From positions 1 to 56,426 of the IMG/VR virus record IMGVR_UViG_3300025087_000082: a DNA stretch of 56,426 nt. One strand, 5' to 3'. Within the stretch, counting starts at the first letter, position 1, and each line of letters begins with the position of its first letter. Positions 6,149 to 42,273 of this stretch are shown in pieces. The position numbers and the translations under genes are program-made. Origin of the DNA: a virus. The notes under the pieces were generated by a model. It searched no databases. It saw only the letters and a list, made by a program, of their open reading frames with translations, and was not told the DNA's origin.

Positions 6149-6159
6149 AAAGGTAGATA

Positions 6160-12377: not shown

Positions 12378-12393
12378 TAAGTATATTCAATTG

Positions 12394-12415: not shown

Positions 12416-12434
12416 AGACAAGAAAGGTTTTGAA

Positions 12435-12608
12435 ATGGCACTAACAATAGTTTTGATTTTGATGATTTTCCTGCCCCTGGTTGTTGGCAGTTACATGCAC
12501 TATACTTTGGGCATTACATCAGGAATGGATATTGCCGCGACGGTTTTACTGTATATCGTGGAAATGGCAGTGTTTTATTCCGTGATGATAAAGCGCCCTC
12601 AAAAGTAA
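12435..12608 (+). CDS. Small two-TM membrane protein
   Basis: MALTIVLILMIFLPLVVGSY... GAAAGG lies before the ATG at 12435. Confidence 0.5.
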   Translation: MALTIVLILMIFLPLVVGSYMHYTLGITSGMDIAATVLLYIVEMAVFYSVMIKRPQK

Positions 12609-12620
12609 CCTGTTGTATTT

Positions 12621-12642
12621 TCGCCTAGCGCGCTGTCGCTGG
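12621..12642 (+). repeat. 22-bp direct repeat, copy 2 (TCGCCTAGCGCGCTGTCGCTGG)
   Basis: See 12394..12415. Confidence 0.85.
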
Positions 12643-12713
12643 TAACAAAACTAATATGTATCAATCTCAGTGTATCGTTGTATACCTGTTACTTGATAAA
12701 GGTAACGGTATAT

Positions 12714-29140: not shown

Positions 29141-30202
29141 ATGCCTAGTAATCTGCGTGTTTTTGACCACTTCTGCAAGCCCCTCGCCTACCTAGAATCA
29201 CCCACCACGCCCAGATCGTGGCTCCTGAACGGCTTCGGCAAAGCGGAATTCTCGGTCGGCTTGCAATATCTCAAGGACAAGTTCACGCCGAAAGAAGAAA
29301 CGGTCATGCAATACGGTAATCTTGTGTTCGTGGAACATATCCCCTCAAAAGACGCGGCGGGAACGGCAAACGGGAAATTACCGGACTGGGTCGGTATCAT
29401 CCTGCCTGACCGGAATTGGCCGGATAAGATTTTGAACGCAACAGCATACAGCGCGGAGGCAATCCTTACCTTTCGCCCCATGCCCCTGACCAAGATAAGC
29501 GGCACGCCCGCATCGATGTTTAAGCAGATGTTGGACATGGCGCACATGATCACTAATGATATTGTCATTCAGCCGGGAGTTATTGAGGACATTCCCGAAA
29601 CGTTCGGGGATAGTCTCGCCACCTCCGCCTATGACCACATCAAGAAACTATGCGCGAATTCGGGCATGGATTGGGACGTGACCGGGCAGATCGACGGGCG
29701 CGGTAATCTGCAACTATACGCCAACCTGTACAGGAGCAAGGGCGCGGTCACCCGGCTGGAATTGACGAGAGACAATGTTGAAGGCAGCGGGCCTCTCCTG
29801 ACCGAGCAGGGAACGCCTTATAACGTCATTTACGGATATTCCCAGGCAAGCACGAAGGAAAGTAGATATTTCGCGAAGGGGATTAATCAGGCGTCAGTGG
29901 ATAAGTACGGGGTACTGGCAACCAATATCGTTTTTTCCGGCATCACAGACCAGACATCCCTTGCCAACGCCGCGCAAACAATGGCGGATAACTCGCCGCC
30001 ACGAATAAAACTTCACCGCGTGGCGCTGGATATTGGTAAGACATTTGACAGCCTAGCGGCGGGGAACACAGTCACCGTGAGAGATAATGCAGTTGGTTTC
30101 AAGCCCGGCGGGGGCTTCGGCTTCGCGGCGAGTGCGCGGATATTGTCATTGGATTACAACGACCTGACAAATAACGCGCCGCTCAATTTGGAGATCATCT
30201 AA
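29141..30202 (+). CDS. Tail tip / baseplate-hub-like protein
   Basis: ATG at 29141, 353 aa. The upstream part of the track ORF is antisense to the HNH gene. Positional call. Confidence 0.45.
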   Translation: MPSNLRVFDHFCKPLAYLESPTTPRSWLLNGFGKAEFSVGLQYLKDKFTPKEETVMQYGNLVFVEHIPSKDAAGTANGKLPDWVGIILPDRNWPDKILNATAYSAEAILTFRPMPLTKISGTPASMFKQMLDMAHMITNDIVIQPGVIEDIPETFGDSLATSAYDHIKKLCANSGMDWDVTGQIDGRGNLQLYANLYRSKGAVTRLELTRDNVEGSGPLLTEQGTPYNVIYGYSQASTKESRYFAKGINQASVDKYGVLATNIVFSGITDQTSLANAAQTMADNSPPRIKLHRVALDIGKTFDSLAAGNTVTVRDNAVGFKPGGGFGFAASARILSLDYNDLTNNAPLNLEII

Positions 30203-31008
30203 TGGCAATTGTGAATGAGGGCGGCGGAGGCGGCGGTTCTTCCACGGATACAGGCGTCTGCGCCATCTCACCATCTGATTTGGTCAGTTACACAGGAAAC
30301 GGGCTAAACCGCATCAAGAGTTTGGAACAGAGAGTAGCGGAATTGGAAGCGGCAATAGTCCAGGTGAACCAACTCTCGGATTTGTCCCAGCAGGTCGGCT
30401 GGGTGGGCAATGTCATCTATATGGGAGTAGAGGGCTGGACACAAACAGAGTACGGGACGCTGATACCGCCTCCCGGCGTGAGTTTCTCGTCGCTCGGCTT
30501 CACCCTCTCGGATGGCAATACCTACCCGTTCGTCGTCATGGACGAAAACGGCGTGTTGCAATATGGGTTTACCAATACCGGCGGAGTGGGCGGGGCATTA
30601 TCTGGCAGTGTTTCTGATTACATTGTATTGGACGATTCATCTGCTGCGCGCCCCCCGGCGTTCACCACAGTCGCATCTCTTGGCACTGCCCTGTCATGCA
30701 TTGGGGATAATGTGATTTCAATCTCCGCGGCTGGGCTTTACATGATAACGTTTCACTGTTCCTTCAAAATGCCAACAGCGGCAACAGATCAGGATACAGC
30801 AGTAGACATTTACAACGGCACGACGCATTATTATGTCACGAACTACTATAACAAGAATACCGCAGACGGAACGCAGCAAAACCAGACGATTACAACCACC
30901 TTTGCATGGTATTTAGCATCCGGTTATACCCTCACTTTTACCTATGGCACGGCTGGAACGTCTGGTGCCCACATGGTTGCTACAGTAGTAAGACTTACGC
31001 GGAGTTAA
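30202..31008 (+). CDS. Tail fibre-like protein
   Basis: Gly-rich N-terminus and coiled coil LEQRVAELEAAIVQVNQL. Confidence 0.45.
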   Translation: MAIVNEGGGGGGSSTDTGVCAISPSDLVSYTGNGLNRIKSLEQRVAELEAAIVQVNQLSDLSQQVGWVGNVIYMGVEGWTQTEYGTLIPPPGVSFSSLGFTLSDGNTYPFVVMDENGVLQYGFTNTGGVGGALSGSVSDYIVLDDSSAARPPAFTTVASLGTALSCIGDNVISISAAGLYMITFHCSFKMPTAATDQDTAVDIYNGTTHYYVTNYYNKNTADGTQQNQTITTTFAWYLASGYTLTFTYGTAGTSGAHMVATVVRLTRS

Positions 31009-31042
31009 TAACCCACCCGTTTAGAAAGCTCATGGAGAACTT

Positions 31043-31765
31043 ATGCCATATAGAAATCTAGCACGCGAATACTCAACCACCCCAGGTACATCCGATTGTG
31101 TCCTTACCGGCGCTGTTCCCGGCTGCAATACTTGGGATTTGGCGGGCGTAGTGACCGGGGAAGTAGTGCGCTATGGGATCATCACCTATTCAACGACCAC
31201 GAACCGCCCGACGCATTCGGAGATCGGGGTTGGGACGTATACCACCAGCACAAAGACACTCGCGCGAACAACAGTTGAAAGTAGCACAGCGGCGGGCGCA
31301 AAGATCACCCTGACAGGATTATCCGAAGTCTATATCTGCCCTACTCGCAAGGACTTGCCGGTCTTTGCGGCTTATTACGGATCGACATTGGTGGTCAATG
31401 ACACGGTGGATAATGCGTTGCTGGATGTTTCTACCGAGTGGACAGACGAACACGGTCTGGCAACGCTGGCAAGCGACGTAATCACAATAAATTATCCATG
31501 CTGGGCGAGTATCTCCATGCAGGTCACATTCGACGCGGCGTCGGCTTTCAACGGTTACGTTCATGTCGAGTGCAACCAATACGGGCAGGGAACCCGCAAG
31601 GGATACACAACCGCGATGGGCATCCTGTCAGACACAATCTTTCTTGGCCCGTTCCTGTTCAATGTTACGACTACGCAGGCGGTTAGCTTTCAATTCGATA
31701 ACCACCTGGGCGCGAACGCGAACACGATTATCAATGATGTGCAGATAGAGGCGTGGCTAAAATGA
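31043..31765 (+). CDS. Hypothetical tail protein
   Basis: 240-aa ORF in the distal tail module. Confidence 0.45.
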   Translation: MPYRNLAREYSTTPGTSDCVLTGAVPGCNTWDLAGVVTGEVVRYGIITYSTTTNRPTHSEIGVGTYTTSTKTLARTTVESSTAAGAKITLTGLSEVYICPTRKDLPVFAAYYGSTLVVNDTVDNALLDVSTEWTDEHGLATLASDVITINYPCWASISMQVTFDAASAFNGYVHVECNQYGQGTRKGYTTAMGILSDTIFLGPFLFNVTTTQAVSFQFDNHLGANANTIINDVQIEAWLK

Positions 31766-31983
31766 TAGGATTTGACGGCATCGGCTTCCACGCCATAGGC
31801 GAGATGATAACGAATCTTTCCGCGCCGCTAACCTTCGATCCGGTCTCGCGCATCGTGGCCGGGGGCTGGTCTAACAATAGACCGGCTGAGGTGGCAGAAC
31901 TGGGTCTGGATTTAATTTGGGATAACGGTGATTATATAGTTTGGGATAACGGCGACAGGATTAATTGGATGCAATCCCCCTAG
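31753..31983 (+). CDS. Hypothetical protein
   Basis: 76-aa ORF. Confidence 0.4.
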   Translation: MAKMIGFDGIGFHAIGEMITNLSAPLTFDPVSRIVAGGWSNNRPAEVAELGLDLIWDNGDYIVWDNGDRINWMQSP

Positions 31984-31995
31984 TAGGAGATTATT

Positions 31996-32475
31996 ATGGC
32001 AGGCAGAAGATACATAGATGATGATACAGGCACAGGCGCGTCAGCAGGCGAAAAGACAACGCTGACAGGAGCGGAGTTCATTCCTATTTCCGGGAATTAT
32101 GTCGCTGCGGTTTCCACTGTCTTGAAATATACGCTTCAGAAATTGTCCACTACCACCGGCGTTGACATGAAAACGGCGGGGGCTACAACCCTTTATACCG
32201 TCCCTGCTGGAAAGACAGCCTATATTATGGTGGTTGTGATTCGGGATAACTCCGCAAGTTTGGCGGGCGGGACAGATTATGATTTTACAGGCTGGCGGCA
32301 AAGCGTGGATTTATCGGGGATGACCACCGCTAACACAACCTATCGAGTTTTGTATGCTACTGATAACACAAGTTACACGGAGGCGGCTGCGGCGTCTACA
32401 TTCCAGATCACAGTATCCACCGGCGCGACGGCTGCGGGTACAGCGACGATTGATGTATTTGGGTTCCTGGTGTAA
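31996..32475 (+). CDS. Hypothetical tail protein
   Basis: 159-aa ORF, the last plus-strand structural gene. Confidence 0.45.
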   Translation: MAGRRYIDDDTGTGASAGEKTTLTGAEFIPISGNYVAAVSTVLKYTLQKLSTTTGVDMKTAGATTLYTVPAGKTAYIMVVVIRDNSASLAGGTDYDFTGWRQSVDLSGMTTANTTYRVLYATDNTSYTEAAAASTFQITVSTGATAAGTATIDVFGFLV

Positions 32476-32493
32476 AGCACTTCCCCACAAAGC

Positions 32494-32528
32494 AATCAGA
32501 CCTGCTTGGCTCTAACTCAGGTCTGATT
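32494..32528. other. 11-bp stem hairpin between convergent operons
   Basis: AATCAGACCTG-13 nt-CAGGTCTGATT. No clear T-run on either side. Confidence 0.4.
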
Positions 32529-32696
32529 ACGGGAACGGAAACGCGCTTCCTGTCGCCTGCCTGCGCGGGCAGGGGCGGCTTGGCTCTGGTTGTGTAGTAG
32601 GGGGAAAAGACGGGCTGAAGGGAGAGGATCGCCGCCTCTCCAATTGTACACTTATGCGAAATAAGTGTCAAGTAGGCTAAATTCAGATTTAGGCTG

Positions 32697-32838
32697 TCCT
32701 AACGGCTGGCGTGAACTACTATATTAACTTGTCGTAGCTTACCGAATGCGTGTTTTTTGATGACGGGGGGCCAATTTCTTCAACACCCGTAGTTGGGCGT
32801 TGTTCAAGTGCGCGGATCGCCTGCATGCCTTGTTGGGC
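32697..32838 (-). repeat. attC-like site 1 (last, degenerate)
   Basis: Minus strand: R'' GCCCAAC (32838..32832), then AAGGCATGCAGGCG ..., then L' CACGCCAGCC and R' GTTAGGA (32703..32697). Arm pairing is weaker than at the other sites. Confidence 0.55.
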
Positions 32839-32961
32839 TGCCTCTAACTCCTGCAACCTTATTTGCAGGCGGGATATCTCGATACTTAACGCCTTCAAGC
32901 AATCGGCATCGTTTCTATGACTCATTATAATAAGACAACCACAACTCAAACAAATTTTCAT
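32719..32961 (-). CDS. Cassette I ORF 2 (80 aa)
   Basis: GGGAG lies before the ATG at 32961, 2 nt after the upstream stop. Confidence 0.55.
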   Translation of the reverse strand: MKICLSCGCLIIMSHRNDADCLKALSIEISRLQIRLQELEAAQQGMQAIRALEQRPTTGVEEIGPPSSKNTHSVSYDKLI

Positions 32962-32963
32962 GT

Positions 32964-33152
32964 CTACGACACTCCCATGTATGGCGAACTATTTTTCGCA
33001 ATTGCCTTTGTATTCTTTGATTTGCAGTATATACAAGGTTTCTTGTTGCGTGGGTAATTCAAACACCACGCACGACCACGACCACAACCAAAGCAATACA
33101 TATTAGGCTTTTTACGCAAATCCTTTCCGAGCAACATAGAAATTAGAGACAT
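32964..33152 (-). CDS. Cassette I ORF 1 (62 aa, zinc-ribbon-like)
   Basis: AAGGAG lies before the ATG at 33152. CFGCG...CIYC. Confidence 0.55.
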   Translation of the reverse strand: MSLISMLLGKDLRKKPNMYCFGCGRGRAWCLNYPRNKKPCIYCKSKNTKAIAKNSSPYMGVS

Positions 33153-33175
33153 ACAACTCCTTGTACCGCGAAGCG

Positions 33176-33298
33176 GGCTAACGGCTGGCGTTACTGGCGG
33201 GCGTATTGATGCTCAACACATTCGCCAGATTCAACATCGCTTTCGCGCAACACTATTCCGCACTCACGGCAAAGCCTGTCCAGTGCACGCTGTTGGTG
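33176..33298 (-). repeat. attC-like site 2
   Basis: R'' CACCAAC-AGCGTGCACTGG ... CCAG-TAACGCCAGCC-R' GTTAGCC. The ORF stop is the TAA inside the L' box. Confidence 0.7.
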
Positions 33299-33412
33299 GT
33301 GGGCATACCAATCATCACCAAATATGCGTAAATCTTCAATCCATTTCGCTTTATTGACAGCTTGTTCTTTTGTGCCATATTTTTCGATATAACAATCAAT
33401 TAGTAATTTCAT
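33191..33412 (-). CDS. Cassette H ORF (73 aa)
   Basis: AGGAGAAAGG lies before the ATG at 33412. MKLLIDCYIEKYGTKEQAVNKAKW... Confidence 0.55.
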   Translation of the reverse strand: MKLLIDCYIEKYGTKEQAVNKAKWIEDLRIFGDDWYAHHQQRALDRLCRECGIVLRESDVESGECVEHQYARQ

Positions 33413-33438
33413 AATATTGCCTTTCTCCTGGGCAGTCC

Positions 33439-33567
33439 GCCCAACGGCTGGCGTTACCCGCTGGTGGTGGGGATAGGAACACAAGCATGGGTTACATTCT
33501 TCCCGCTTGGGAAACCACAATCCGGGCAGGCGTGCCCACCACCAGTCGGGTGCACGCTGTGTTGGGC
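33439..33567 (-). repeat. attC-like site 3
   Basis: Plus strand: TCCGCCCAAC-GGCTGGCGTTA-CCCG-CTGGTGGTGGG pairs with CCCACCACCAG-T-CGGG-TGCACGCTGT-GTTGGGCGGA. There is a 10-bp R stem, an unpaired spacer, a 15-bp L stem and one unpaired T. Confidence 0.85.
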
Positions 33568-33876
33568 GGACAACCATAAACAATCTTTACTGTGGATAAC
33601 TTCACCTTCTTTGTCTTTTTCGTATTCTTTACAAAAGAAACAGTACAAACCGCCTTGAAATTCATACATTGGATCAAGCTGTGTTAGGATGCCCCTAAGC
33701 CTTCGGATTTCGGCGATTAGAAAAGGGACATCGTTTTGGATAACCTCTTTGCCATACTCGGATGCGTAGAGGAAACCACCATCGAAATGACACCCGCGAG
33801 TTGCGCGCCAATGTATCATTTCAAGTTCATCTTCTGTGAGTTCTTTATACTTCTGCACAGGTTTACTTTTTGGCAT
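33454..33876 (-). CDS. Cassette G ORF 2 (140 aa)
   Basis: ORF from the track. Its 3' end is encoded by attC 3. Confidence 0.6.
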   Translation of the reverse strand: MPKSKPVQKYKELTEDELEMIHWRATRGCHFDGGFLYASEYGKEVIQNDVPFLIAEIRRLRGILTQLDPMYEFQGGLYCFFCKEYEKDKEGEVIHSKDCLWLSAQHSVHPTGGGHACPDCGFPSGKNVTHACVPIPTTSG

Positions 33877-34018
33877 TTTTTTCCTTTCTCATTTTTGCGG
33901 CAATCTCTTTACACTTGGCAACGCCAGCACGGACGGCACGAAGATCAACGCGAACCATCATTTGATGATAGTGCAACTCTTGCCGAAGTTCTTTGATAAT
34001 GGTTTTACTTGTTTTCAT
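33863..34018 (-). CDS. Cassette G ORF 1 (51 aa, basic helical)
   Basis: Translated by hand as MKTSKTIIKELRQELHYHQMMVRVDLRAVRAGVAKCKEIAAKMRKEKNAKK. It overlaps the next start. Below the 60-aa cutoff of the ORF track. Confidence 0.4.
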   Translation of the reverse strand: MKTSKTIIKELRQELHYHQMMVRVDLRAVRAGVAKCKEIAAKMRKEKNAKK

Positions 34019-34043
34019 GGAGTACTTTTTTGTGCACGAGGCA

Positions 34044-34165
34044 GCCTAACTTTTGCGTTAGCGGCGGCGGATTGTGCCACGCATTACCGAATGCAGTTCA
34101 CCTTTTTCGGAAATACCAACATTTTCGCGCACGTCATCAGCCGTCCGCTGCACGCTTTGTTGGGC
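34044..34165 (-). repeat. attC-like site 4
   Basis: Minus strand: GCCCAAC-AAAGC-GTGCAGCGG-A-CGGC ... GCCGCCGC-TAACGCAAAA-GTTAGGC. L stem GCGGCGGC/GCCG-T-CCGC with an unpaired base. Confidence 0.85.
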
Positions 34166-34354
34166 GGCTTCCATGATTATTTGAATGGCAGAGATTGACA
34201 GATTTATACAATGAAAATCTGCAACGCCAATTACAGGACTCATGTGTCTGATAATACTAACTGTGCCATTACTCCTAATTTCGGCATAATGTACGTTATC
34301 AATCTCAACCGTCTTTAGGGTTGTTACTCCAATTGTAGGATCATCGTTTTGCAT
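34058..34354 (-). CDS. Cassette F ORF (98 aa)
   Basis: AGAAAGG lies before the ATG at 34354. Confidence 0.55.
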   Translation of the reverse strand: MQNDDPTIGVTTLKTVEIDNVHYAEIRSNGTVSIIRHMSPVIGVADFHCINLSISAIQIIMEAAQQSVQRTADDVRENVGISEKGELHSVMRGTIRRR

Positions 34355-34378
34355 AATTACCTTTCTGTGGGCGAGTCC

Positions 34379-34489
34379 GCCCAACGGCTTGCGTTAGCCG
34401 CCCTTTACAGGCTGTTTACCTTTGCTGGAGATCACGACTGCGGGCATTTTGCCAATGCTTTCAATAGTCGGCTGCACGCTTTGTTGGGC
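34379..34489 (-). repeat. attC-like site 5
   Basis: GCCCAAC-AAAGC-GTGCAGCCGACT ... CGGC-TAACGCAAGCC-GTTGGGC. Confidence 0.8.
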
Positions 34490-34594
34490 GGCTTCTTGGA
34501 CTGCGGGATGCCAATGATCGCTAACAACATCAACATGCCGCCATTCAGAACCGCTTAGATATATTTCTCGAAAACAAACTTTACACTTTTCCAT
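34394..34594 (-). CDS. Cassette E ORF (66 aa, CxxC...HxxH)
   Basis: GGAAGAAGGAAAC lies before the ATG at 34594. MEKCKVCFREIY... Confidence 0.55.
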   Translation of the reverse strand: MEKCKVCFREIYLSGSEWRHVDVVSDHWHPAVQEAAQQSVQPTIESIGKMPAVVISSKGKQPVKGG

Positions 34595-34618
34595 GTTTCC
34601 TTCTTCCTGGGCGAGTCC

Positions 34619-34730
34619 GCCCAACGGCTCGCTTTAGCGGCTGACCGCTGGCAGAGCCTTTTTGGATTTCGTAACCTTTGCGGGCTTTTCGGCGTGCTCG
34701 TCAATTAGTCCGCTGCACGCTTTGTTAGAC
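34619..34730 (-). repeat. attC-like site 6
   Basis: GTCTAAC-AAAGC-GTGCAGCGG-A-CTAA ... CCGC-TAAAGCGAGCC-GTTGGGC. Confidence 0.8.
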
Positions 34731-34852
34731 GCCCACACGACATATTGTGAAAGCTGCGAGCCGCGCCCGCGCTGGACTCGGAAGCCACAGGCACGGGCAG
34801 CGGCGACGATTTGCTCATAACGATCATCTGTGAAGTAGATGGACTTAGGCAT
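34634..34852 (-). CDS. Cassette D ORF 2 (72 aa, possible ribbon-helix-helix DNA-binding protein)
   Basis: The N-terminus MPKSIYFTDDRYEQIVAAARACGF has the beta-strand-then-helix pattern of CopG/Arc-type proteins. The basic tail is encoded through attC 6. Confidence 0.5.
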   Translation of the reverse strand: MPKSIYFTDDRYEQIVAAARACGFRVQRGRGSQLSQYVVWASNKACSGLIDEHAEKPAKVTKSKKALPAVSR

Positions 34853-34879
34853 TATTTAGGTTTCTGAGGGACAACGCCA

Positions 34880-35113
34880 TTATCTGTTTGCTTTCCAGTG
34901 ATTGATCGGCGCAATTTCCTTCATAGCCTTTTCAAATTCTTCCAGTGTTTTGAAGGTATCGTGACCGATCTCTCCTGTTTCGTCTTGACCGAAGTATGTC
35001 AGGCGATAACCACCCATCAATTCTTCGGTGGCGACTGTGGAAGAACTATCTTCCATTTCAAAAACTAAGCCGCCGTTGTATTCTCGCAGTTGATATTGTT
35101 TCTTGTCGTTCAT
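34880..35113 (-). CDS. Cassette D ORF 1 (77 aa, acidic)
   Basis: GGAG lies before the ATG at 35113. Confidence 0.6.
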   Translation of the reverse strand: MNDKKQYQLREYNGGLVFEMEDSSSTVATEELMGGYRLTYFGQDETGEIGHDTFKTLEEFEKAMKEIAPINHWKANR

Positions 35114-35130
35114 TTCGATCTCCTTTTTGT

Positions 35131-35142
35131 AATCTATAGATT
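35131..35142. promoter_or_regulatory. Perfect 12-bp palindrome AATCTATAGATT (operator-like), copy 1
   Basis: Lies between the -10 and the RBS of the 34880..35113 gene. Confidence 0.6.
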
Positions 35143-35143
35143 T

Positions 35144-35171
35144 ATTTTACTACTAATCTATAGATTGTCAA
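35144..35171 (-). promoter_or_regulatory. Cassette-internal sigma70-type promoter
   Basis: Minus strand: TTGACA (35171..35166), 16 nt spacer, TAAAAT (35149..35144). It overlaps two operator-like palindromes. Confidence 0.55.
35155..35166. promoter_or_regulatory. Perfect 12-bp palindrome AATCTATAGATT (operator-like), copy 2
   Basis: Abuts the -35 hexamer. Centres of the two copies are 24 bp apart. Confidence 0.6.
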
Positions 35172-35196
35172 GGGTGAGTTTTTACGCTTTCTGGGC

Positions 35197-35323
35197 GTCT
35201 AACGGCTGGTTTTAGCTGCGGGGCGGTTCCTGGGTGACATTACTCCAATCAAAATCACCCATGCTGCCATCGTCCATTTTGCGCCAACCCGTAGCCCCGT
35301 CAGACTGCAAACCTTTGTTAGGC
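35197..35323 (-). repeat. attC-like site 7
   Basis: GCCTAAC-AAAGG-TTTGCAGTCTG-A-CGGGGC ... GCCCCGCAGC-TAAAACCAGCC-GTTAGAC. The cassette ORF stops at the TAA inside R''. Confidence 0.8.
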
Positions 35324-35443
35324 GGCTATTTCACCTTGCAGAAAACCTATAACCTGCTCGGCTGTTGTAAAACCATACTTCCATGAGTTGCCATCCTCTT
35401 TTACGAAAATCAATTCAATGACAAAAAGGTTATCTAAATTCAT
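35318..35443 (-). CDS. Cassette C ORF (41 aa)
   Basis: GAAAGGAAG lies before the ATG at 35443. MNLDNLFVIELIFVKEDGNSWKYGFTTAEQVIGFLQGEIAA. The stop lies in R'' of attC 7. Confidence 0.45.
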   Translation of the reverse strand: MNLDNLFVIELIFVKEDGNSWKYGFTTAEQVIGFLQGEIAA

Positions 35444-35466
35444 AACTTCCTTTCGGCGGAGCGTCC

Positions 35467-35592
35467 GCCCAACGGCTCGCTTTAGCGGCGGCGTATTACG
35501 CCTCATGCTCCCGCTTGATAATCGCTTCCATTTCGCCACGCTTCACAGCCTCGGCAGACCGTTCAGCCGTCCGCTGCAAGCGTTTGTTAGCC
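35467..35592 (-). repeat. attC-like site 8
   Basis: GGCTAAC-AAACG-CTTGCAGCGG-A-CGGC ... GCCGCCGC-TAAAGCGAGCC-GTTGGGC. Confidence 0.85.
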
Positions 35593-35777
35593 CGCCCCCG
35601 TGCATTACAGAGCGCCCATTGTGCCTGAGCCAAAGACGGCGCAAGATCATCGCAGTTGAAGCCATCAACTTCGAATAAGCCCCACGCATCATCCATTTCC
35701 AAAATTTCAGGATGTGACGGAATTAGCGCAAGGATTCTATCTGCCAATTCATTACCAGTTGATTCATAATTCAACAT
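35496..35777 (-). CDS. Cassette B ORF (93 aa)
   Basis: AGAAAGGAA lies before the ATG at 35777. The ORF ends inside attC 8. Confidence 0.6.
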   Translation of the reverse strand: MLNYESTGNELADRILALIPSHPEILEMDDAWGLFEVDGFNCDDLAPSLAQAQWALCNARGRANKRLQRTAERSAEAVKRGEMEAIIKREHEA

Positions 35778-35805
35778 TTCAAATTCCTTTCTTTTGCCCG
35801 TAGCG

Positions 35806-35934
35806 GGCTAACGGCTTGCGTTAGCGGTTTGCCGAGCCGTGAACGGGACAATTAGGATCAATACTCAACGTCGTTGGAGTCGGTCGCGTGGAGCAGGTGC
35901 ATACCGGCAAATCCGCTGCACGCATTTGTTGGGC
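35806..35934 (-). repeat. attC-like site 9 (first complete site)
   Basis: GCCCAAC-AAATG-CGTGCAGCGG-A-TTTGCCGG ... CGGCAAACCGC-TAACGCAAGCC-GTTAGCC. Confidence 0.85.
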
Positions 35935-36048
35935 GGCTTTACAATCCAGGCACGTACATTCGGCGATAACGTAGGTTGTTTGGGATATAAACTTTGCACC
36001 GCACAACGCCATTGACCCATCACCACCGTTTGAAATTAGATGAACCAT
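35821..36048 (-). CDS. Cassette A ORF (75 aa, Cys-rich)
   Basis: AGAAAGGTG lies before the ATG at 36048. MVHLISNGGDGSMALCGAKF...CTCLDC... The 3' end runs through attC 9. Confidence 0.55.
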   Translation of the reverse strand: MVHLISNGGDGSMALCGAKFISQTTYVIAECTCLDCKAAQQMRAADLPVCTCSTRPTPTTLSIDPNCPVHGSANR

Positions 36049-36073
36049 AAGACACCTTTCTGCGGAACAAGTC

Positions 36074-36080
36074 CGCCCAA
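36074..36080 (-). repeat. Orphan R' box (GTTGGGC) at the head of the array (attI-like junction?)
   Basis: GTTGGGCGGAC is identical to the internal R' boxes, but the upstream flank (ggaataactccgtagataccata) lacks the L' consensus and no R'' partner lies upstream. Confidence 0.55.
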
Positions 36081-36097
36081 CTATGGTATCTACGGAG

Positions 36098-36271
36098 TTA
36101 TTCCGTATAACATCCCGCATGGGGATGTTTTTCCGGCTCCTCATCCAGCGCGTCATGATCATATGTACACTCCCAGCCCACGAGCGTCAGTTCCATCTCG
36201 TGATCGCAGATGCGGCAGACAGGATCGCCGTCCGGGGGTTCTGAGGGGGGGTCGAAGGTGAGGCGGGTCAT
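36098..36271 (-). CDS. Small Cys-containing protein (57 aa), third gene of the pre-array operon
   Basis: Hand translation: MTRLTFDPPSEPPDGDPVCRICDHEMELTLVGWECTYDHDALDEEPEKHPHAGCYTE. ATGA overlap with the upstream stop. Confidence 0.5.
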   Translation of the reverse strand: MTRLTFDPPSEPPDGDPVCRICDHEMELTLVGWECTYDHDALDEEPEKHPHAGCYTE

Positions 36272-36495
36272 GCTGGCTCCTGGGCGGTCTTAGCTGATGC
36301 GTGAAATTTTCCGGCAGGAACCGTTTCGGATGTGCCATCGGCATACCGCAGGCATAATATATTGTGATAACCCCACGTAGTACCCGCGCGGCGTGTGCGA
36401 AATCGGTTTATGATAGCGCATTGTTTCCCGTTATAAATAAATGTGAGTTTATTTGTTACCTGATTACCAATGCTGTATTTCATTTGTGTGTTCAT
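36268..36495 (-). CDS. Hypothetical protein (75 aa)
   Basis: The ATG at 36495 forms an ATGA overlap with the upstream stop. Confidence 0.55.
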   Translation of the reverse strand: MNTQMKYSIGNQVTNKLTFIYNGKQCAIINRFRTRRAGTTWGYHNILCLRYADGTSETVPAGKFHASAKTAQEPA

Positions 36496-36740
36496 GCCGG
36501 CACATCCCATACAATAGGCTTAGCACCCTTCGGGGCATGTTCAGCGCAATACCAGTGTCCAACATTGCACCATGATGGATTCTTTGATGGATCACAAACT
36601 GTGGCAAGGGTAGCAGGTCTCCCGCACCACACCGCGCTGGACATTGCCCATGATAACTTGCTGTCATCGTGTCCAACAATAGCAGCACAAGTAATCAGTG
36701 TATCCCCTTCATGTAATTTTCCATCTGCGTGTGTATTCAT
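36492..36740 (-). CDS. Hypothetical Cys/Trp-rich protein (82 aa), first gene of the leftward operon
   Basis: AAAAGGAAAAC lies before the ATG at 36740. Confidence 0.6.
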   Translation of the reverse strand: MNTHADGKLHEGDTLITCAAIVGHDDSKLSWAMSSAVWCGRPATLATVCDPSKNPSWCNVGHWYCAEHAPKGAKPIVWDVPA

Positions 36741-36765
36741 GTTCGTTTTCCTTTTCTATGCCTGG

Positions 36766-36794
36766 ATTATAAAGCAGGAATATGAATTTGTCAA
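36766..36794 (-). promoter_or_regulatory. Consensus sigma70 promoter driving the leftward operon and cassette array
   Basis: Minus strand: TTGACA (36794..36789), 17 nt spacer, TATAAT (36771..36766). Confidence 0.75.
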
Positions 36795-36804
36795 GCCTTA
36801 TGAC
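36790..36804. promoter_or_regulatory. 15-bp inverted repeat, left arm (GTCAAGCCTTATGAC)
   Basis: Perfect reverse complement of 36852..36866. It overlaps the leftward -35. Confidence 0.85.
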
Positions 36805-36825
36805 ATGCCAATTATTGCCAGAATG

Positions 36826-36839
36826 TTACAAACTTGTAA
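36826..36839. promoter_or_regulatory. Central palindrome TTACAA-ac-TTGTAA
   Basis: 6-bp arms, near the midpoint between the two 15-bp arms. Confidence 0.5.
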
Positions 36840-36851
36840 TGGAGGAATATC

Positions 36852-36866
36852 GTCATAAGGCTTGAC
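36852..36866. promoter_or_regulatory. 15-bp inverted repeat, right arm (GTCATAAGGCTTGAC)
   Basis: Overlaps the rightward -35. Confidence 0.85.
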
Positions 36867-36890
36867 ACGGCAGAGTTTATCGGTTATGCT
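36862..36890 (+). promoter_or_regulatory. Sigma70 promoter for the rightward operon (near-leaderless HTH gene)
   Basis: TTGACA, 17 nt spacer, TATGCT. The ATG at 36897 lies only 6 nt after the -10. Confidence 0.7.
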
Positions 36891-36896
36891 TGGGGC

Positions 36897-37136
36897 ATGA
36901 AAAAGAATTACATCACTCCCCCGTCCCGCCGTGCGCTGGAAATCGAAGTCGAGCAGACCCGCCGCGAATATGCAAAGCGGGCTAGAAAGCTGTTGCAAAA
37001 TGGCAAGTCACTGAGACAGACTGGAGATATTATCGGCGTGAGTTACGAGACGATCAGGGCGTGGATGAAAAAATACTATCCATCAGATAAGGAGGCCGAA
37101 GGGGAAGTGTACCCTTTTGATGAGTTACAAGTCTAG
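36897..37136 (+). CDS. HTH DNA-binding regulator (79 aa)
   Basis: SLRQTGDIIGVSYETIRAWMKK helix-turn-helix. First gene at the switch region. Confidence 0.65.
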   Translation: MKKNYITPPSRRALEIEVEQTRREYAKRARKLLQNGKSLRQTGDIIGVSYETIRAWMKKYYPSDKEAEGEVYPFDELQV

Positions 37137-37146
37137 TGATAGAATA

Positions 37147-37229
37147 AGAAAAAGCCCGTCACGTGAATGACGGGCAGGCAACTGAGCATCTCAACTTCTC
37201 CGGTTAAGCAGCTCTTCCCCATAATACCA
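37147..37229 (-). ncRNA. Candidate ~70-nt leftward small RNA (extended -10 promoter plus intrinsic terminator)
   Basis: Minus strand has TGgTATTAT (37229..37221). Hairpin GCCCGTCA-6 nt-TGACGGGC (37175..37154) is followed by TTTTTCTTATT. No plus-strand T-run. Confidence 0.25.
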
Positions 37230-37266
37230 CAACGGTAGAAAATGGGGTAGGGCGGAAAGGTCAAGA

Positions 37267-37626
37267 ATGTACAACCCACTAAAAGCAGAAACAATCAAAC
37301 GTATCTCCCAGGCGCAGGTAGCCGTCCGCGCCGCCACGTTGCAGGAGCAGCTTGAAATCCTGGACGAGCAGATCGCGAAGATCAAAGGCTGGATCACCGT
37401 GTACACAAAGGCGAGACAGACAAAAGGAGTAGTCGTCCATCAGGCGACACTCGCCCGCATCGAGATGGAACGCGAGCAGATCAAGGCAGAAATTTATGCT
37501 GCTGATATGAAGCCGCAACTTGATGAGTTTCTGGAGCGTGTCGGGACTGCATTGAACCTGACACCTGCAACCGTAGCCGAGAACCCTGACGACTGGGCGC
37601 GCCTGCTGAAAGCGGTGCGATCATGA
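37267..37626 (+). CDS. Hypothetical coiled-coil protein
   Basis: GGAAAGG lies before the ATG. 119 aa. Confidence 0.6.
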   Translation: MYNPLKAETIKRISQAQVAVRAATLQEQLEILDEQIAKIKGWITVYTKARQTKGVVVHQATLARIEMEREQIKAEIYAADMKPQLDEFLERVGTALNLTPATVAENPDDWARLLKAVRS

Positions 37627-37913
37627 GCGAACGCTATTCGAACAAACGTGCCTTACATCGCCAGGGCGGGCGCTTCTATAAGCCGACCGCTGCGGACTTC
37701 GGGATTGGCGGATTTTGCAAAATCCATCACCGCATGTTGCTGAGAGTTTATGACGGCGACCCGACAATCGGCACGCCTGACCCGCGCTTATTCCGTTATC
37801 GCTGCTTCGCGTGTGAACCTGAAACAGACGCAGAGAAGCAGGAAAGGGAAGCAAAGGAAGCCGCTGAGCCGAAATTCTCGTTGGCTACATTTATGGAAAG
37901 GGGAATGAAATGA
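37623..37913 (+). CDS. Hypothetical protein
   Basis: ATGA overlap. 96 aa. Confidence 0.5.
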   Translation: MSERYSNKRALHRQGGRFYKPTAADFGIGGFCKIHHRMLLRVYDGDPTIGTPDPRLFRYRCFACEPETDAEKQEREAKEAAEPKFSLATFMERGMK

Positions 37914-38149
37914 CCGACAACGAGTATGTCGATTTGATCTTTGAGGAACTCTACGCACATGCCGCATTCGAAGCGGATGACTGCGACGAGAACCTGAGCG
38001 AATGGGCGCACCTATCCCGCACATTGAGTCGGGAGCGAGCCGAGCGCGCCGCAAGCCGAGCGCCGCAATTGCCCCCCGCTGAGGCCTCCTCAGACACCTG
38101 GGAAGCGCAGGCGCTGGACAGCGGGTACGGATCGGGAGGTGTGATGTGA
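37910..38149 (+). CDS. Hypothetical acidic protein
   Basis: ATGA overlap. 79 aa. Confidence 0.5.
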   Translation: MTDNEYVDLIFEELYAHAAFEADDCDENLSEWAHLSRTLSRERAERAASRAPQLPPAEASSDTWEAQALDSGYGSGGVM

Positions 38150-38403
38150 AGCGCACAAAACAATGGTGGTCTGCATTGTCCAAAGCAGAACGGTCGTATC
38201 TTGTGTACGCAGAGCGTTTCCAAAACAGTTATTCGGGCATGGGCGGATACCTGCCTGACGATTGTTCGGAATGTCGGGTTTGTGGCGATCCTATGCTGGG
38301 AAGCGGTACATGTACATATTGCATAAACAAAATATCCAAACTAATTACAAAAGCAAACTCCGCGCCGCGTGGCGGTGCGAGTAAACAAACAGAAAAGGAG
38401 TAA
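38146..38403 (+). CDS. Zinc-ribbon protein
   Basis: CSECRVCG...CTYC. Confidence 0.5.
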   Translation: MKRTKQWWSALSKAERSYLVYAERFQNSYSGMGGYLPDDCSECRVCGDPMLGSGTCTYCINKISKLITKANSAPRGGASKQTEKE

Positions 38404-38405
38404 CA

Positions 38406-38966
38406 ATGTTAGATCAAGCAATTACACCCTTGCAGGAAATTGCCCAGCCCGCCGAAGCGGGATTCTCAACCAATATGTTTCTCAATCATCCGATGATGGG
38501 CCGCGTCCAGTTCACGTTCCGCGGCGCAACCGCCCGCGATTGGGGAACTGTGATGGAGGACGTAGGGCGCTTCCTGCACTACATGAAAGACAAGGGCTGG
38601 AACTTTGACGGCTATGCCGCCGCGAAGCCAGCCGAAGCCCCGCAAACACCCCAACCCCCCGATCCTAATGAGCCGCAATATACAAACGTTGATGACAGTG
38701 GCAGCGAACTGCCGCCCGTCAAATCGTTCGTGGCTGAAAGGCTATCCGTCAAGATGGAAGATGGTAAATACTTCTACAAGGTCATGGGCGGGCAGTTCAA
38801 CCAGTGGGGCATTAGCGTATGGCCTGAGGTGCTTGAGGCTTGCAGGATCAACGTCACTGACCCCGCCAGCCCTCCAAGCATCAACGGCTGGACGGCTGAG
38901 TACACCGAGATACAGAAGGACGGCAAGACCCGCCGCAAGGTGACGCGGTTACTGCCACCTAAATAA
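38406..38966 (+). CDS. Hypothetical protein (186 aa)
   Basis: AAAAGGAG lies before the ATG. Pro-rich linker in the centre. Confidence 0.6.
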   Translation: MLDQAITPLQEIAQPAEAGFSTNMFLNHPMMGRVQFTFRGATARDWGTVMEDVGRFLHYMKDKGWNFDGYAAAKPAEAPQTPQPPDPNEPQYTNVDDSGSELPPVKSFVAERLSVKMEDGKYFYKVMGGQFNQWGISVWPEVLEACRINVTDPASPPSINGWTAEYTEIQKDGKTRRKVTRLLPPK

Positions 38967-38978
38967 CCCCTGCCTCCC

Positions 38979-39010
38979 CCCAGCGCGGCATCTTGGCTCG
39001 CCGCGCTGGG
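38979..39010 (+). other. 11-bp stem hairpin
   Basis: CCCAGCGCGGC-10 nt-GCCGCGCTGGG. No T-run. Confidence 0.5.
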
Positions 39011-39032
39011 AGGAAGAAACAGAAAGAAGGAC

Positions 39033-39122
39033 ATGATAAAGCAGTGTAGCAAGTGCAAGCATTGGAAGTTGTTTACGGAGTTCAAAAAAGACAAGAGGCG
39101 CAAAAGTGGGTTAAGTGGATAA
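39033..39122 (+). pseudogene. 29-aa remnant resembling the Zn-ribbon N-terminus of phage HNH/homing endonucleases
   Basis: MIKQCSKCKHWKLFTEFKKDKRRKSGLSG, then a stop. Confidence 0.35.
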
Positions 39123-39221
39123 GGATTGTTCTCTGCTGTCTGCCCACCTGATAGCGCACCCTACCCTGGGACAGGCGACGAGTCACGGACGCTAGACGTG
39201 ACGGGCAGACAGGAGCGAACA

Positions 39222-39434
39222 ATGAAAACAACCATCAAAAGCGAAAGTCTTTTACAGATCGGCTTGAATGAGTTACAGGCGGCTGAGGCGGCTGAATGCG
39301 CAGCCAGCGAAGCGTTCCACGCCTCTAACCTATGGCAAGATCGTGGCGCATGGCTGGCCGCGTGGAACAAGCTAGATAGCTTACGGAAGCTATATGAGCA
39401 GGGCGAGTCTCTGCTACTCTCGAAAGGATTTTGA
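39222..39434 (+). CDS. Hypothetical protein (70 aa)
   Basis: CAGGAG lies before the ATG at 39222. Confidence 0.5.
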   Translation: MKTTIKSESLLQIGLNELQAAEAAECAASEAFHASNLWQDRGAWLAAWNKLDSLRKLYEQGESLLLSKGF

Positions 39435-39435
39435 T

Positions 39436-39795
39436 ATGACCGCATTGGATGAAATGGTGAACCCCCGTTCCGGGGCAAGCGTTGGTGACACATTTATTTA
39501 CAGCGTTCCGGCTGAGGTTGCGCGAGCAGCACCCGCCGAACTCGCCCGCCTGCAAGCAATTGAAGAACATGTAAACGAAGCGGTCGAGAAGATCACCGAC
39601 TGGAAAGACAAAGCATACCCGCTTGGCATCTTTCCAGAACCGGACTTTGAACGGGCGCATGAACTCCTGACAGCAGGCGGAATGTCTCTTGACGCTGTAA
39701 GCGCCTCCGCCATCCGATTTGCGCTAAGCCGCGTGTGCGAGATACTCGCCGCCTGTCTGCCCAGACAGGCGGCGCTGAAAGGACAAACGGAATGA
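39436..39795 (+). CDS. Hypothetical protein (119 aa), paralog of the next gene
   Basis: Begins MTALDEM and contains ELARLQAIEEH. Confidence 0.5.
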   Translation: MTALDEMVNPRSGASVGDTFIYSVPAEVARAAPAELARLQAIEEHVNEAVEKITDWKDKAYPLGIFPEPDFERAHELLTAGGMSLDAVSASAIRFALSRVCEILAACLPRQAALKGQTE

Positions 39796-39983
39796 GCGCA
39801 TTGGATGAACTTATTAGGATTTGTAAAGACGATGAGATTTTGAGGCAATGGGCAAGCGACGCTGAACAGGAACTCGCCCGCCTGCAAGCCATCGAGAAGG
39901 CGGCGCGGAAATACATGGAGCATGACGACAACATGAACCATTCGCGCTATGACGCACTCGCCGCCGCGCTGGGCAAGGAGTAG
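39792..39983 (+). CDS. Hypothetical protein (63 aa), paralog of the previous gene
   Basis: Begins MSALDEL and contains ELARLQAIEKA. Confidence 0.5.
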   Translation: MSALDELIRICKDDEILRQWASDAEQELARLQAIEKAARKYMEHDDNMNHSRYDALAAALGKE

Positions 39984-39985
39984 GG

Positions 39986-40123
39986 ATGAGTACCATCCTG
40001 CTAGAGGGTGATTGCCTGAAAATGTTGCCAGGCCTGGCCACGGAGAGCATTGACTTAGTTTTCACTTCCCCGCCTTACCCTGGTGTAAATAAGAAGAACA
40101 CAAAGCATATTGACTATAGATAG
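39986..40123 (+). pseudogene. Truncated DNA methyltransferase (N-terminal 45 aa only)
   Basis: MSTILLEGDCLKMLPGLATESIDLVFTSPPYPGV..., then a stop. No SAM-binding half lies downstream in any frame. Confidence 0.6.
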
Positions 40124-40346
40124 TTCCTTCAACGATGCTCTAAGACGCTCCGATATGAGCATCCACATACAACAAAACAAACAGTAAGCCAAAGCGTATT
40201 CAACGCAAAGCCCTGAGGTGTATTTCGGAGCAAACTGTTACAGGTTTGAAGACCACGACGCGCCGTTTCCTGAGTTGGGCGAAAGCCCTATCCTGTGTCA
40301 AAGCCGAGAACAGGCAGGACATTGATGAAACCCTAATCGGGTAGAG

Positions 40347-40481
40347 ATGAAAAGTGAAACGGACAACCCTTTTGAACTAACCGTTCGATTTGTCCTTGAA
40401 AAAGGAAGGGAGGCCATGCCGCAGGGAATTAACGCGTCAATTTTTAAATACAACTTAAACCCTAACCGGAGGCAACAATGA
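40347..40481 (+). CDS. Possible small ORF (44 aa) coupled to the next gene
   Basis: Its stop forms an ATGA overlap with the ATG at 40478. Confidence 0.3.
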   Translation: MKSETDNPFELTVRFVLEKGREAMPQGINASIFKYNLNPNRRQQ

Positions 40482-40951
40482 CTCAGACAACCGACTCAAG
40501 GCAGATCGGAATGATAGTAAGAGGAATATTGAGTAAACATAATTTGGATAATCTCCAATTGGAGATCGACCTAACTGAATCATTCAAGCGGTATATGGAT
40601 GGCAAAAAACAGGGCCGGGATATTGCCAAAATCCGCGAGGAAATATTGCTCTCGCTTGAAATAGGAGCACTCAAGGAAAATGCAAAGATAAACATGGAGG
40701 CGCGGGTCAAGCTGTCGCTTGGGATAGAAGTTTCAGGGAGAAGCCGCTACGATGACATGATTCGCTTCCTTCTCAAAAAGGATGCGGAGGGGCAGTCAGT
40801 GGAACTGTTCGCGGAGTGGTGCAGAAATAACCCATTCAATGCTCCGAAGTTTTTCAAGATTGCGGAAATGCCTGATTTGCTTATGGTCAACTGGCCTGCC
40901 GCATTCGCTGAATATGCAGTGAAAGTTTCTGAATATGTGACGCTGACATGA
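40478..40951 (+). CDS. Hypothetical replication-associated protein (possible helicase loader/initiator)
   Basis: 157 aa, with a start/stop overlap into dnaB. Positional call only. Confidence 0.4.
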   Translation: MTQTTDSRQIGMIVRGILSKHNLDNLQLEIDLTESFKRYMDGKKQGRDIAKIREEILLSLEIGALKENAKINMEARVKLSLGIEVSGRSRYDDMIRFLLKKDAEGQSVELFAEWCRNNPFNAPKFFKIAEMPDLLMVNWPAAFAEYAVKVSEYVTLT

Positions 40952-42273
40952 CGCTTACTATCCCCCACTCACGCGAAGCGGAAGAAGCCGCGCTCGGCTG
41001 CGTCATGATAGATCATAACGCGCTTTATGATCTTGCGCCTTTCCTGCGCTCCCATCATTTCTACATCGAAAGACATAAATGGATTTGGGATGCCTTCCTT
41101 GCGCTGGACGGGCGGCGCTCCTCCATTGACCTTGTTATGGTTGCTGACGAATTGGAACGGCATGGGAAGTTGGCGGAGGCTGGCGGGCCCGCCTATCTTA
41201 CCAAACTGGTTAGCAATGTTCCGTCATCCCTCAACGCCGAAAGCTATGGGCGGATCGTGACAGGTACGGCGGCGCGGCGGGCCATGATCCAGGCCGCAAA
41301 CAAGATTGCCACACTCGCCTACGATGAATCGAAGCCGATTGAGTTATGTGTATCAGACGCGATGGCTGAGACATCCGGCTTGGAGATTCTCAACAACAGC
41401 GCGAACTTTGTACAACTTGGCGACTTGTTGAGTCGAGTTATTGATGACATCGAAGTCCGCGCCAAAGATCCTAAGGAAGTTTGGGGGCTGGCGACCGGAC
41501 TTCCGAAGTTTGATAAAAAGACGGGCGGCCTGCAACTTGGTGAACTTACCTATCTTGTGGGTGGGCCTGGGATTGGCAAGACATGGCTTGAACTTAGCTG
41601 GGCAATCGAACTCGGCAAACAGGAGCCGGGCGCGGTCATCTCGCTTGAGATGCACCGGAACGCAATCGGGCGGCGTGTCCTGTCTGGTGTAACAGGCGTA
41701 TCCACGCGGGCTATGAAATCAGGCTTTATGGCGGATGGAGATTGGCCTGTGCTGGTACGCGCGCTGGGGGAACATGAAAAGACACCAATCTGGATAGATG
41801 ACTCAAGTTATGACACCTCCCGCCTGCGCGCTACCCTGGCATGGCTGAAACGCGAGCATGGTATCAGATGGTTTATTCTGGACTACGCCCTGCTAATGAT
41901 GGACAGCGGCAAGGATGAAACTGAACAGACGAAGATCATCAGCGCGAACATGAAGCGCATTGTGCATGACATGAATATATGCGGCGTTGTCTTGCACTCT
42001 GTTACAAAGGTCGGCATGGAGGGGGAGGAGCCGAAACAGAGCGACCAGCGGGGCAGCGGGCAGGCGATCCACGACGCCGATGTGCAATTGTTTCTTACCA
42101 AACTCTACGAAAAGGATACCAATGTATCCGGTCTAACTCCCGAACAAAAGGCGAAGATGGCGACGCTATGGTGCAGTAAGGGCCGGGAGCTGGAAGAATC
42201 GAAATTCAAACTCCACCTGATACGGCGCGGCAATAGTCCGTTTTGGGCCGAGTATGATCCATACCATGAATAG
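40948..42273 (+). CDS. dnaB: Replicative DNA helicase DnaB
   Basis: N-terminal PHSREAEEAALGCVM...GGPAYL and Walker A GGPGIGKT. 441 aa. Confidence 0.9.
   Translation: MTLTIPHSREAEEAALGCVMIDHNALYDLAPFLRSHHFYIERHKWIWDAFLALDGRRSSIDLVMVADELERHGKLAEAGGPAYLTKLVSNVPSSLNAESYGRIVTGTAARRAMIQAANKIATLAYDESKPIELCVSDAMAETSGLEILNNSANFVQLGDLLSRVIDDIEVRAKDPKEVWGLATGLPKFDKKTGGLQLGELTYLVGGPGIGKTWLELSWAIELGKQEPGAVISLEMHRNAIGRRVLSGVTGVSTRAMKSGFMADGDWPVLVRALGEHEKTPIWIDDSSYDTSRLRATLAWLKREHGIRWFILDYALLMMDSGKDETEQTKIISANMKRIVHDMNICGVVLHSVTKVGMEGEEPKQSDQRGSGQAIHDADVQLFLTKLYEKDTNVSGLTPEQKAKMATLWCSKGRELEESKFKLHLIRRGNSPFWAEYDPYHE

Follow-up and report, generated by a model that had tools for sequence, protein, structure and literature searches.

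What are the palindromic repeats that separate the small genes of an uncultivated groundwater phage, and do the boxes at their ends record the exchange of gene cassettes by an integron integrase? The question is raised by IMG/VR record IMGVR_UViG_3300025087_000082, a viral sequence of 56,426 nt which we analysed whole (hereafter the window). Nine imperfect palindromes of 111–142 nt (S1–S9) alternate with small minus-strand open reading frames (ORFs) within 3.3 kb, and the repeat motifs are confined to 32.7–36.1 kb, with none elsewhere in the 56 kb. Read on the minus strand, the sites have the layout 5' GCCGCCCAAC-AAA-GCGTGCAGCGGAC ... CCGCTAACGC-AAGCC-GTTGGGCGGAC 3', corresponding to the R''-L'' ... 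L'-R' order of integron attC sites, and all nine carry inverted R''/R' core boxes (..AAC ... GTT..) at 111–142 nt spacing. As a consensus, the top strand of the sites is GCCGCCCAAC-AAA-GCGTGCAGCGGAC ... CCGCTAACGC-AAACC-GTTRGNCGGC. We conclude that 32697–36094 (minus strand) is very probably an integron-type gene-cassette array in a phage, consisting of an attI-like junction, nine cassettes (A–I) and attCs of the Anaerolineales/Chloroflexota type. As there are at least two serial attC sites and no integrase gene (intI) in 56 kb, it is a cluster of attC sites lacking an integrase (CALIN).

In the mechanism we propose, an integron integrase would cut and rejoin DNA at the R' box, between G and TT (G|TT). 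Each cassette would therefore carry at its 5' end the TTRRRY(+3) (R, purine; Y, pyrimidine) that pairs with its own R'' box when the cassette is circular, and an arrayed site would be a chimera, to which the upstream cassette contributes R''-L''-L'-G and the downstream cassette TTRRRY. The match between R'' and the preceding R' box is a classical textbook property of integron cassettes, and crossover at G|TT was reportedly established by Hall, Stokes and colleagues in the 1990s. Because the rule is textbook knowledge, confirming it mainly shows that the repeats are genuine integron sites that were once active, as opposed to generic palindromes.

R-box pairing within the window

A sequence-only reading of the window had claimed that variant R'' boxes match the R' box of the preceding site and not that of their own. 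The strings on which it relied are present exactly as quoted on the plus strand: gcgggctaac (35803–35812) and gttagcccgc (35586–35595) for cassette B, and gggcgtctaac (35193–35203) and gttagacgccc (34724–34734) for cassette D. Cassette B (35473–35811; like all the cassettes, on the minus strand) has the 5' end TTAGCCCGC and closes with attC S8 (35467–35592), whose R'' box, GCGGGCTAAC, is perfectly complementary over 10 nt to the preceding R' box. In cassette D (34625–35202), the 5' end TTAGACGCCCA matches the R'' box TGGGCGTCTAA of S6 (34619–34730); here too the complementarity is perfect, and it spans 12 nt, not just the 11 first reported. Tabulating all arms bore out the remaining details, namely that sites 9, 8 and 6 have two mismatches each between their own two R boxes, that cassettes A, E and F have consensus boxes and are uninformative, and that cassettes C, G, H and I show 1–2 mismatches.

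The permutation check that had been proposed was run on 10 R' arms and nine R'' arms (500,000 permutations). There were 30/36 RRRY matches in preceding-site pairing versus 23/36 in same-site pairing (P = 0.026; P = 0.033 and 0.022 for positions 4–11 and 4–12, respectively). On the nine window cassettes alone, the pairing is real and only modestly significant; it is suggestive, not compelling.

A window-only P value of about 0.02–0.03 is also what might be obtained by chance or artefact, if two coincidental complementarities of 10–12 nt had been over-read in generic intergenic palindromes (repetitive extragenic palindromic (REP)-like elements or terminators) or in assembly or sequencing errors. 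Rfam, searched with the whole window at gathering thresholds, returned no match, which is compatible with that explanation. Errors, on the other hand, are countered by independent assemblies. Among the contigs retrieved, the same phage is present in eight (L215–L222) from several groundwater metagenomes, including PRJNA268031 and JGI 3300002097, 3300009285, 3300025009 and 3300025117, and 30098–42271 is 100% identical in them, with one mismatch in L215; the protein used to look up these contigs occurs on at least 24 contigs. The array must therefore be fixed in that population, an assembly artefact is ruled out, and the variant R boxes are not sequencing errors. The variant boxes TTAGCCCGC and GCGGGCTAAC of cassette B also recur in several JGI and ENA assemblies of other arrays. 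An assembly chimera was ruled out by the eight identical independent contigs together with the syntenic flanks in related phages described below.

The pairing rule across the site family

Relatives were found with an exact 18-mer from the conserved arm, which matched 28 stretches on 26 IMG/VR viral contigs and at least 120 bacterial genome stretches; among the first 80 bacterial matches listed, 66 were Chloroflexota, mostly Anaerolineales. Arm hidden Markov models (HMMs) built from the window gave ordered 5'-arm/3'-arm arrays in most relatives, with 363 complete sites. Family counts refer to non-redundant cassettes, ~270 viral and bacterial together.

The RRRY of R'(k-1) and R''(k) was identical for 56/83 cassettes in viral and 154/185 in bacterial arrays. 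Within single sites it was identical in 14/93 viral and 65/218 bacterial cases, a background level shared by offsets of -3, -2, +1, +2 and +3, and the difference between preceding-site and same-site pairing was highly significant (Fisher P = 8.6 × 10−13, viral; P = 3.3 × 10−28, bacterial). Over ~270 related cassettes, then, the claim holds that a cassette starts with the TTRRRY part of its own R' box, with same-site pairing at background. Given family-wide P values of 10−12 to 10−28, the linkage of the site family to TIGR02249 integrases (see below) and the identical sequence in independent assemblies, the chance or artefact explanation is effectively refuted and its probability negligible. 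Readings of the repeats as REP, terminator or shufflon-like elements were ruled out by the intI link and by cassette-level covariation.

Identity per position was ~0.9 through position 9, 0.7–0.8 at position 10 and at background from ~11–12; the drop past position 10 indicates that the R helix is 9–10 bp long. For the inner stem (the L box plus the stem past a conserved bulged A), the pairing partner lies in the same site, with a score of 8.05/9 versus ~4.7 for neighbours in the viral arrays. As the inner stem pairs in-site and RRRY pairs with the next cassette, the pairing partner switches between L' and RRRY. The switch is a prediction of crossover at G|TT, and the data fit it.

Mosaic R boxes could also have been produced if general or phage recombinases had shuffled segments by homologous recombination on the ~25-nt conserved attC arms. 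From site to site these long arms hardly differ, and phages are known to recombine on short homologies. Such recombination would, however, blur the partner switch, which is sharp, with L' belonging to its own site and RRRY to the next cassette. Moreover, the site interior always moves with the upstream ORF, as G|TT crossover predicts, and in each of four independent comparisons of shared cassettes, described next, the R' box is the site of both breakpoints. We consider homologous recombination a very unlikely source of the mosaicism.

Cassettes shared between arrays

It had been suggested that the same cassettes be sought in other arrays with the same 5' TTRRRY, and cassette B is found in this form. 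Eleven other contigs encode a homologue of its protein with 98% identity, and the cassette DNA is ~99% identical in L208–L213 (window 35825/35804–35468), where it again has the 5' end TTAGCCCGC and where the neighbours differ. At the 5' breakpoint identity begins at ...ACGCAAGCCG|TTAGCCCGC, and the attC interiors upstream differ; at the 3' breakpoint it ends right after GTT (GTT|GGGCGGAC in the window, GTT|AGGTTGCC in L208). The same breakpoints at the R' box are seen in three bacterial cassette pairs. For cassette D, a homologue on viral contig L002 has TTAGCCGCC/GGCGGCTAA in place of TTAGACGCC/GGCGTCTAA, a compensatory change in both boxes.

The array containing cassette B in L208 also accounts for one exception to the R-box rule. 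The first ORF of window cassette I has a counterpart there with 84% identity, placed upstream of B and so in the opposite order. In L208 this ORF is a separate cassette, whose attC has an R'' box, GCGGGCTAAC, that complements the 5' end TTAGCCCGC of window cassette I. The 'cassette I' of the window (32703–33181; ORFs of 62 and 80 aa; terminal attC S1, 32697–32838, degenerate) is therefore two cassettes fused by attC loss, which explains its departure from the rule. Cassette G (33445–34049; ORFs of 51 and 140 aa; attC S3, 33439–33567), which does not obey the rule, may likewise be a fusion of two cassettes.

In L211 and L213, the attC upstream of cassette B is cleanly deleted at a GCTA(A)C microhomology (regions for this deletion and for the cassette I fusion: window 32703–33181, L208 760–1120 and L211 890–1010).

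Integron integrases in relatives

Arrays of the site family adjoin integrase genes in bacteria. On a 1.4-Mb Chloroflexia contig (L148) and in an Anaerolineales genome (L108), the adjoining genes score 461 and 453 bits against TIGR02249 (cut-off for 'integron integrase', 265 bits). In both, intI is divergently oriented from the array, as in canonical integrons, and the R''-to-R' direction points away from intI, in agreement with the polarity assigned to the window array from its ORFs. Viral members of the family also encode such enzymes: L002 (61 kb) has an integron integrase (376 bits; 1069–2064, minus strand) directly upstream of its cassettes, L018 has a diverged IntI-like gene (5832–7205, plus strand) scoring 203 bits, below the cut-off, and L208 has a partial diverged IntI-like gene (2–385, plus strand). 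The recombinase search in relatives found none with a strict pattern and two with a looser one, and tblastn added L002 and L018.

In L002, L018 and L208 the integrase-type gene is co-directional with the cassettes, not divergent from them.

Taken with the family-wide rule, the partner switch, the breakpoints of cassette B and the compensatory changes of cassette D, the linkage of the site family to intI supports the claim that the chimeric boxes are a footprint of real integron exchanges.

The start of the array

Ahead of the first cassette stands a single R' box without an upstream attC arm, CGTAGATACCATA|GTTGGGCGGAC (36071–36094, minus strand), where the crossover would lie between 36081 and 36080. 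Like junctions occur in related phages (CGCTCATACCCTA|GTT, ~16690–16715 in L150; GGTCATACACTA|GTT, ~15330–15360 in L149) and beside intI in L148 (CGCTTAATCACTA|GTT, ~5695–5720). The intI-side junction of L108 is similar, and the pattern ..TAWA..MATA|GTT was found in some 20 other arrays, phage and bacterial. The window junction resembles attI1, which is CCCTAAAACAAA|GTT and was confirmed in at least 5,000 plasmids. From these likenesses it is a candidate attI-like site, and it could equally contain the -10 element of a promoter. A metagenome search with the window junction gave no matches.

The leftward operon that contains the array opens with a sigma-70-like promoter sequence, TTGACA-17-TATAAT, which matches 12/12 positions (36766–36794, minus strand) and is followed by three small non-cassette ORFs and then the cassettes. 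This promoter-like site (36794–36766) may play the role of the integron cassette promoter, Pc.

Cassette turnover at one locus

In three related phages (L149, L150 and L151), both flanks are 73–97% identical in nucleotide sequence to those of the window, and an array occupies the same position. No cassette ORF is common to any of these phages and the window, or to any two of them. Besides backbone segments, the only element in common is one attC: site S4 of cassette F (34044–34165) and the most distal attC of L150 (12318–12433) have 91% identity over a stretch of 116 nt, and the adjoining ORFs are unrelated.

Did these exchanges take place on phage DNA, or was the array captured already formed? 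Several findings weigh against our account of the array. The window contains no IntI match even at E ≤ 10 (tblastn with two IntI queries) and no tyrosine recombinase among its large ORFs; an intI beside the array, which marks a complete integron, is found in relatives only. Any recombination inside this phage is accordingly putative. All eight same-phage contigs examined have an unchanged array, with no sign of ongoing exchange at population scale, and the circular junction of cassette B (...GCTAAAGCGAGCCG|TTAGCCCGCTACGG) had no match among metagenome contigs. The degenerate sites S1 and S2 have folds no more stable than those of shuffled sequences, at least one attC has been lost (in the fused cassette I), and the array may be decaying. 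The rule is obeyed perfectly in just 5/9 window cassettes. The negative Rfam search belongs on the same side, as does a limit on the crossover itself: all tests run agree with G|TT, but the data bracket the point to roughly -10 to +3 (~13 nt), and the exact bond is beyond their resolution.

The missing intI, the 100% identity in eight contigs, the degenerate S1 and S2, the fused cassette I and a concordance of 5/9, below the family average, would all be in keeping with a fossil, that is, an array lifted whole out of the chromosomal integron of a bacterium, through illegitimate or homologous recombination, and inert since, its chimerism inherited without exchange on phage DNA. Such a capture does not sit well with three related phages that have syntenic flanks, arrays at exactly the same position and no common cassette ORFs. 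Each of their arrays begins at a similar TA|GTT junction, where R' matches the R'' of the first cassette; a copy of cassette B with ~99% identity sits in another phage-like array, which has an IntI-like gene at its start; and other viral contigs of the site family encode intI. We therefore judge fossil capture improbable.

A further-reaching reading, which we rate as somewhat less likely than not, is that a Chloroflexota (Anaerolineales) phage lineage keeps an integrase-less integron platform (promoter, attI-like site and array) in its early operon, with integrases provided in trans, and that small accessory genes, possibly for counter-defence, are traded with other phages and hosts, giving full turnover between close relatives. 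In our main account, too, the recombinase would act in trans and come from a chromosomal integron of the Chloroflexota host or from a co-infecting phage that encodes an integrase. Cassettes would enter at the attI-like junction and be transcribed from the phage early promoter at 36794–36766, and their products, all small proteins, would serve accessory functions.

Folding of the sites

On the top (minus) strand, the R''-L'' arm has a GC-versus-A internal loop and a bulged A, both kept in the window and in aligned relatives. Unpaired bases thus occur on one arm only, the strand polarity typical of attC sites, and the class 1 integron sites in L207 share the asymmetry. When bottom strands were folded and compared with 200 shuffles, 5/9 window sites folded end to end as arrayed. 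The z-scores of the nine sites lay between +1.05 and -4.18; S3 and S4 alone were better than all 200 shuffles, S3 being the best hairpin of the array (-36.6 kcal/mol, z = -4.2).

Restoring a cassette's own 5' TTRRRY, which recreates the attC of the circular cassette, made the fold 4.6–4.7 kcal/mol more stable, in 51/60 viral and 134/157 bacterial cases; with the R' box of the next site as a control, the change was near 0. In the window the mean change on restoring the box was -1.8 kcal/mol, with cassettes B and D becoming 9.4 and 4.7 kcal/mol more stable, respectively.

Comparison with known integrons

The class 1 array aadB-cmlA1-blaOXA-10-aadA1 of plasmid LT904892 (L207) has the same R''(..YAAC)-L''...L'-R'(GTT....) architecture, with the extra bases on the top-strand R''-L'' arm. 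The identical cross-boundary rule was reproduced there (aadB, 5' TTAGGCCGC and R'' GCGGCCTAAC; OXA-10, 5' TTAGCCACC and R'' GGTGGCTAAC). The arm of its cmlA1 attC, TCGCCCAACAAATCGCTGCAGCCGAC, closely resembles the window consensus, GCCGCCCAACAAAGCGTGCAGCCGAC, and was the top match of the window-derived 5'-arm HMM in this locus, a weak one (E = 0.06). Unlike the class 1 array, that of the window is in a phage and lacks intI; its sites are longer (111–142 nt) and homogeneous, as in sedentary chromosomal integrons, the R helix of its family is 9–10 bp and not 7, and most of its ORFs traverse the attC and stop at a TAA in L'.

The VCR sites (Vibrio cholerae repeats) of the V. cholerae superintegron resemble those of the window in being ~120–130 nt long, highly homogeneous and laid out as AAC-AAA-stem, whereas their sequence family, host phylum and replicon all differ. 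The Anaerolineales/Chloroflexota integrons of L148 and L108 have the same attC family, the TA|GTT junction and the cross-boundary rule in common with the window. They differ in being chromosomal with a divergent intI, and ORFs in bacterial arrays end less often at the L' TAA.

Among 10,705 NCBI phage genomes, Qi, Rajabal, Ghaly, Tetu and Gillings (2023, Front Microbiol; PMC9892861) found three integrons, one In0 and 17 CALINs (at least two attC sites), and IntI1 recombined 5/6 phage attCs. Like those CALINs, the window array is an integrase-less attC cluster in a phage genome with its cassettes in one orientation. It differs from them in belonging to an uncultivated phage, in having nine sites and an attI-like junction, and in its Chloroflexota-type attCs, as well as in the complete cassette turnover at one locus across the lineage and the presence of one cassette at 99% identity in another array. 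The phenomenon is known; the window array is a new phage CALIN of unusual size and with a well-described context. Its interest lies in this setting, a large array at a fixed locus of an uncultivated groundwater phage, with attCs of the Chloroflexota chromosomal-integron family. These findings extend the 2023 report of rare phage CALINs and point to a phage lineage that routinely exchanges genes in the form of integron cassettes.

Cassettes and their reading frames

Cassette proteins, from ~13 small ORFs, gave nothing usable against Pfam and PHROGs, and as proteins without a family they are candidates for phage accessory or counter-defence functions. Cassette A (35812–36080; attC S9, 35806–35934) encodes 75 aa (ORF 36048–35821) and cassette B 93 aa (35777–35496). 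In cassette C (35203–35472; attC S7, 35197–35323) the 41-aa ORF (35443–35318) stops within R'', and there is one G/A mismatch in the R pairing. Cassette D has two ORFs (77 and 72 aa). Cassettes E (34385–34624; attC S5, 34379–34489), F (34050–34384) and H (33182–33444; attC S2, 33176–33298) have single ORFs of 66, 98 and 73 aa, respectively. Departures from the strict R consensus include the R'' box of S2, CACCAAC, and the R' box of S1, GTTAGGA.

Cassette ORFs typically read through the whole attC, and their stop is a TAA inside the L' box (GCTAACGC). This was so for 6/9 ORFs in the window, 44/93 in viral arrays and 42/219 in bacterial arrays, against a rough chance expectation of ~10%. The R''-L'' arm, when translated, gives a recurrent ..AAQQSVQ.. 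motif.

Short leader segments recur as well. The 5' leader of cassette A, GAAAGGTGTCTTATG (36033–36048), stands verbatim before an unrelated cassette ORF in viral locus L006, and the first 33 nt of cassette C (R' box and ribosome-binding site) are 94–97% identical to cassette starts in L002, L019 and L058.

Within cassette D, a promoter-like site, TTGACA-16-TAAAAT (35171–35144), is flanked by two ATCTATAGAT palindromes (region 35128–35175). This arrangement suggests an autoregulated, toxin-antitoxin-like module; the two ORFs of the cassette had no family match.

Phage genome and setting of the array

The 56-kb window is a phage genome, with genes for a terminase, portal, major head protein, tape measure, Dit, tail fibres, a DnaB helicase and DNA methyltransferases on the plus strand. 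The leftward operon with the array sits between the tail-fibre genes, which end at 32475, and the early/replication genes. The array had no megablast match among GenBank phages, and in our literature searches the Chloroflexota phage lineage of the window was not described.

Around the head of the operon, 36766–36890 forms a divergent promoter region, in which a perfect 16-nt inverted repeat (36789–36804 and 36852–36867) holds both TTGACA boxes. The rightward gene beyond it (36897–37136) encodes a small helix-turn-helix-like DNA-binding protein, and together the two look like a phage regulatory switch. Between the portal and major head genes (8385–13844, plus strand) lies a cluster of radical SAM/SPASM, S-adenosylmethionine (SAM) methyltransferase, thiamine-pyrophosphate-dependent enzyme and DegT-family aminotransferase genes, which may have a role in sugar or other modification.

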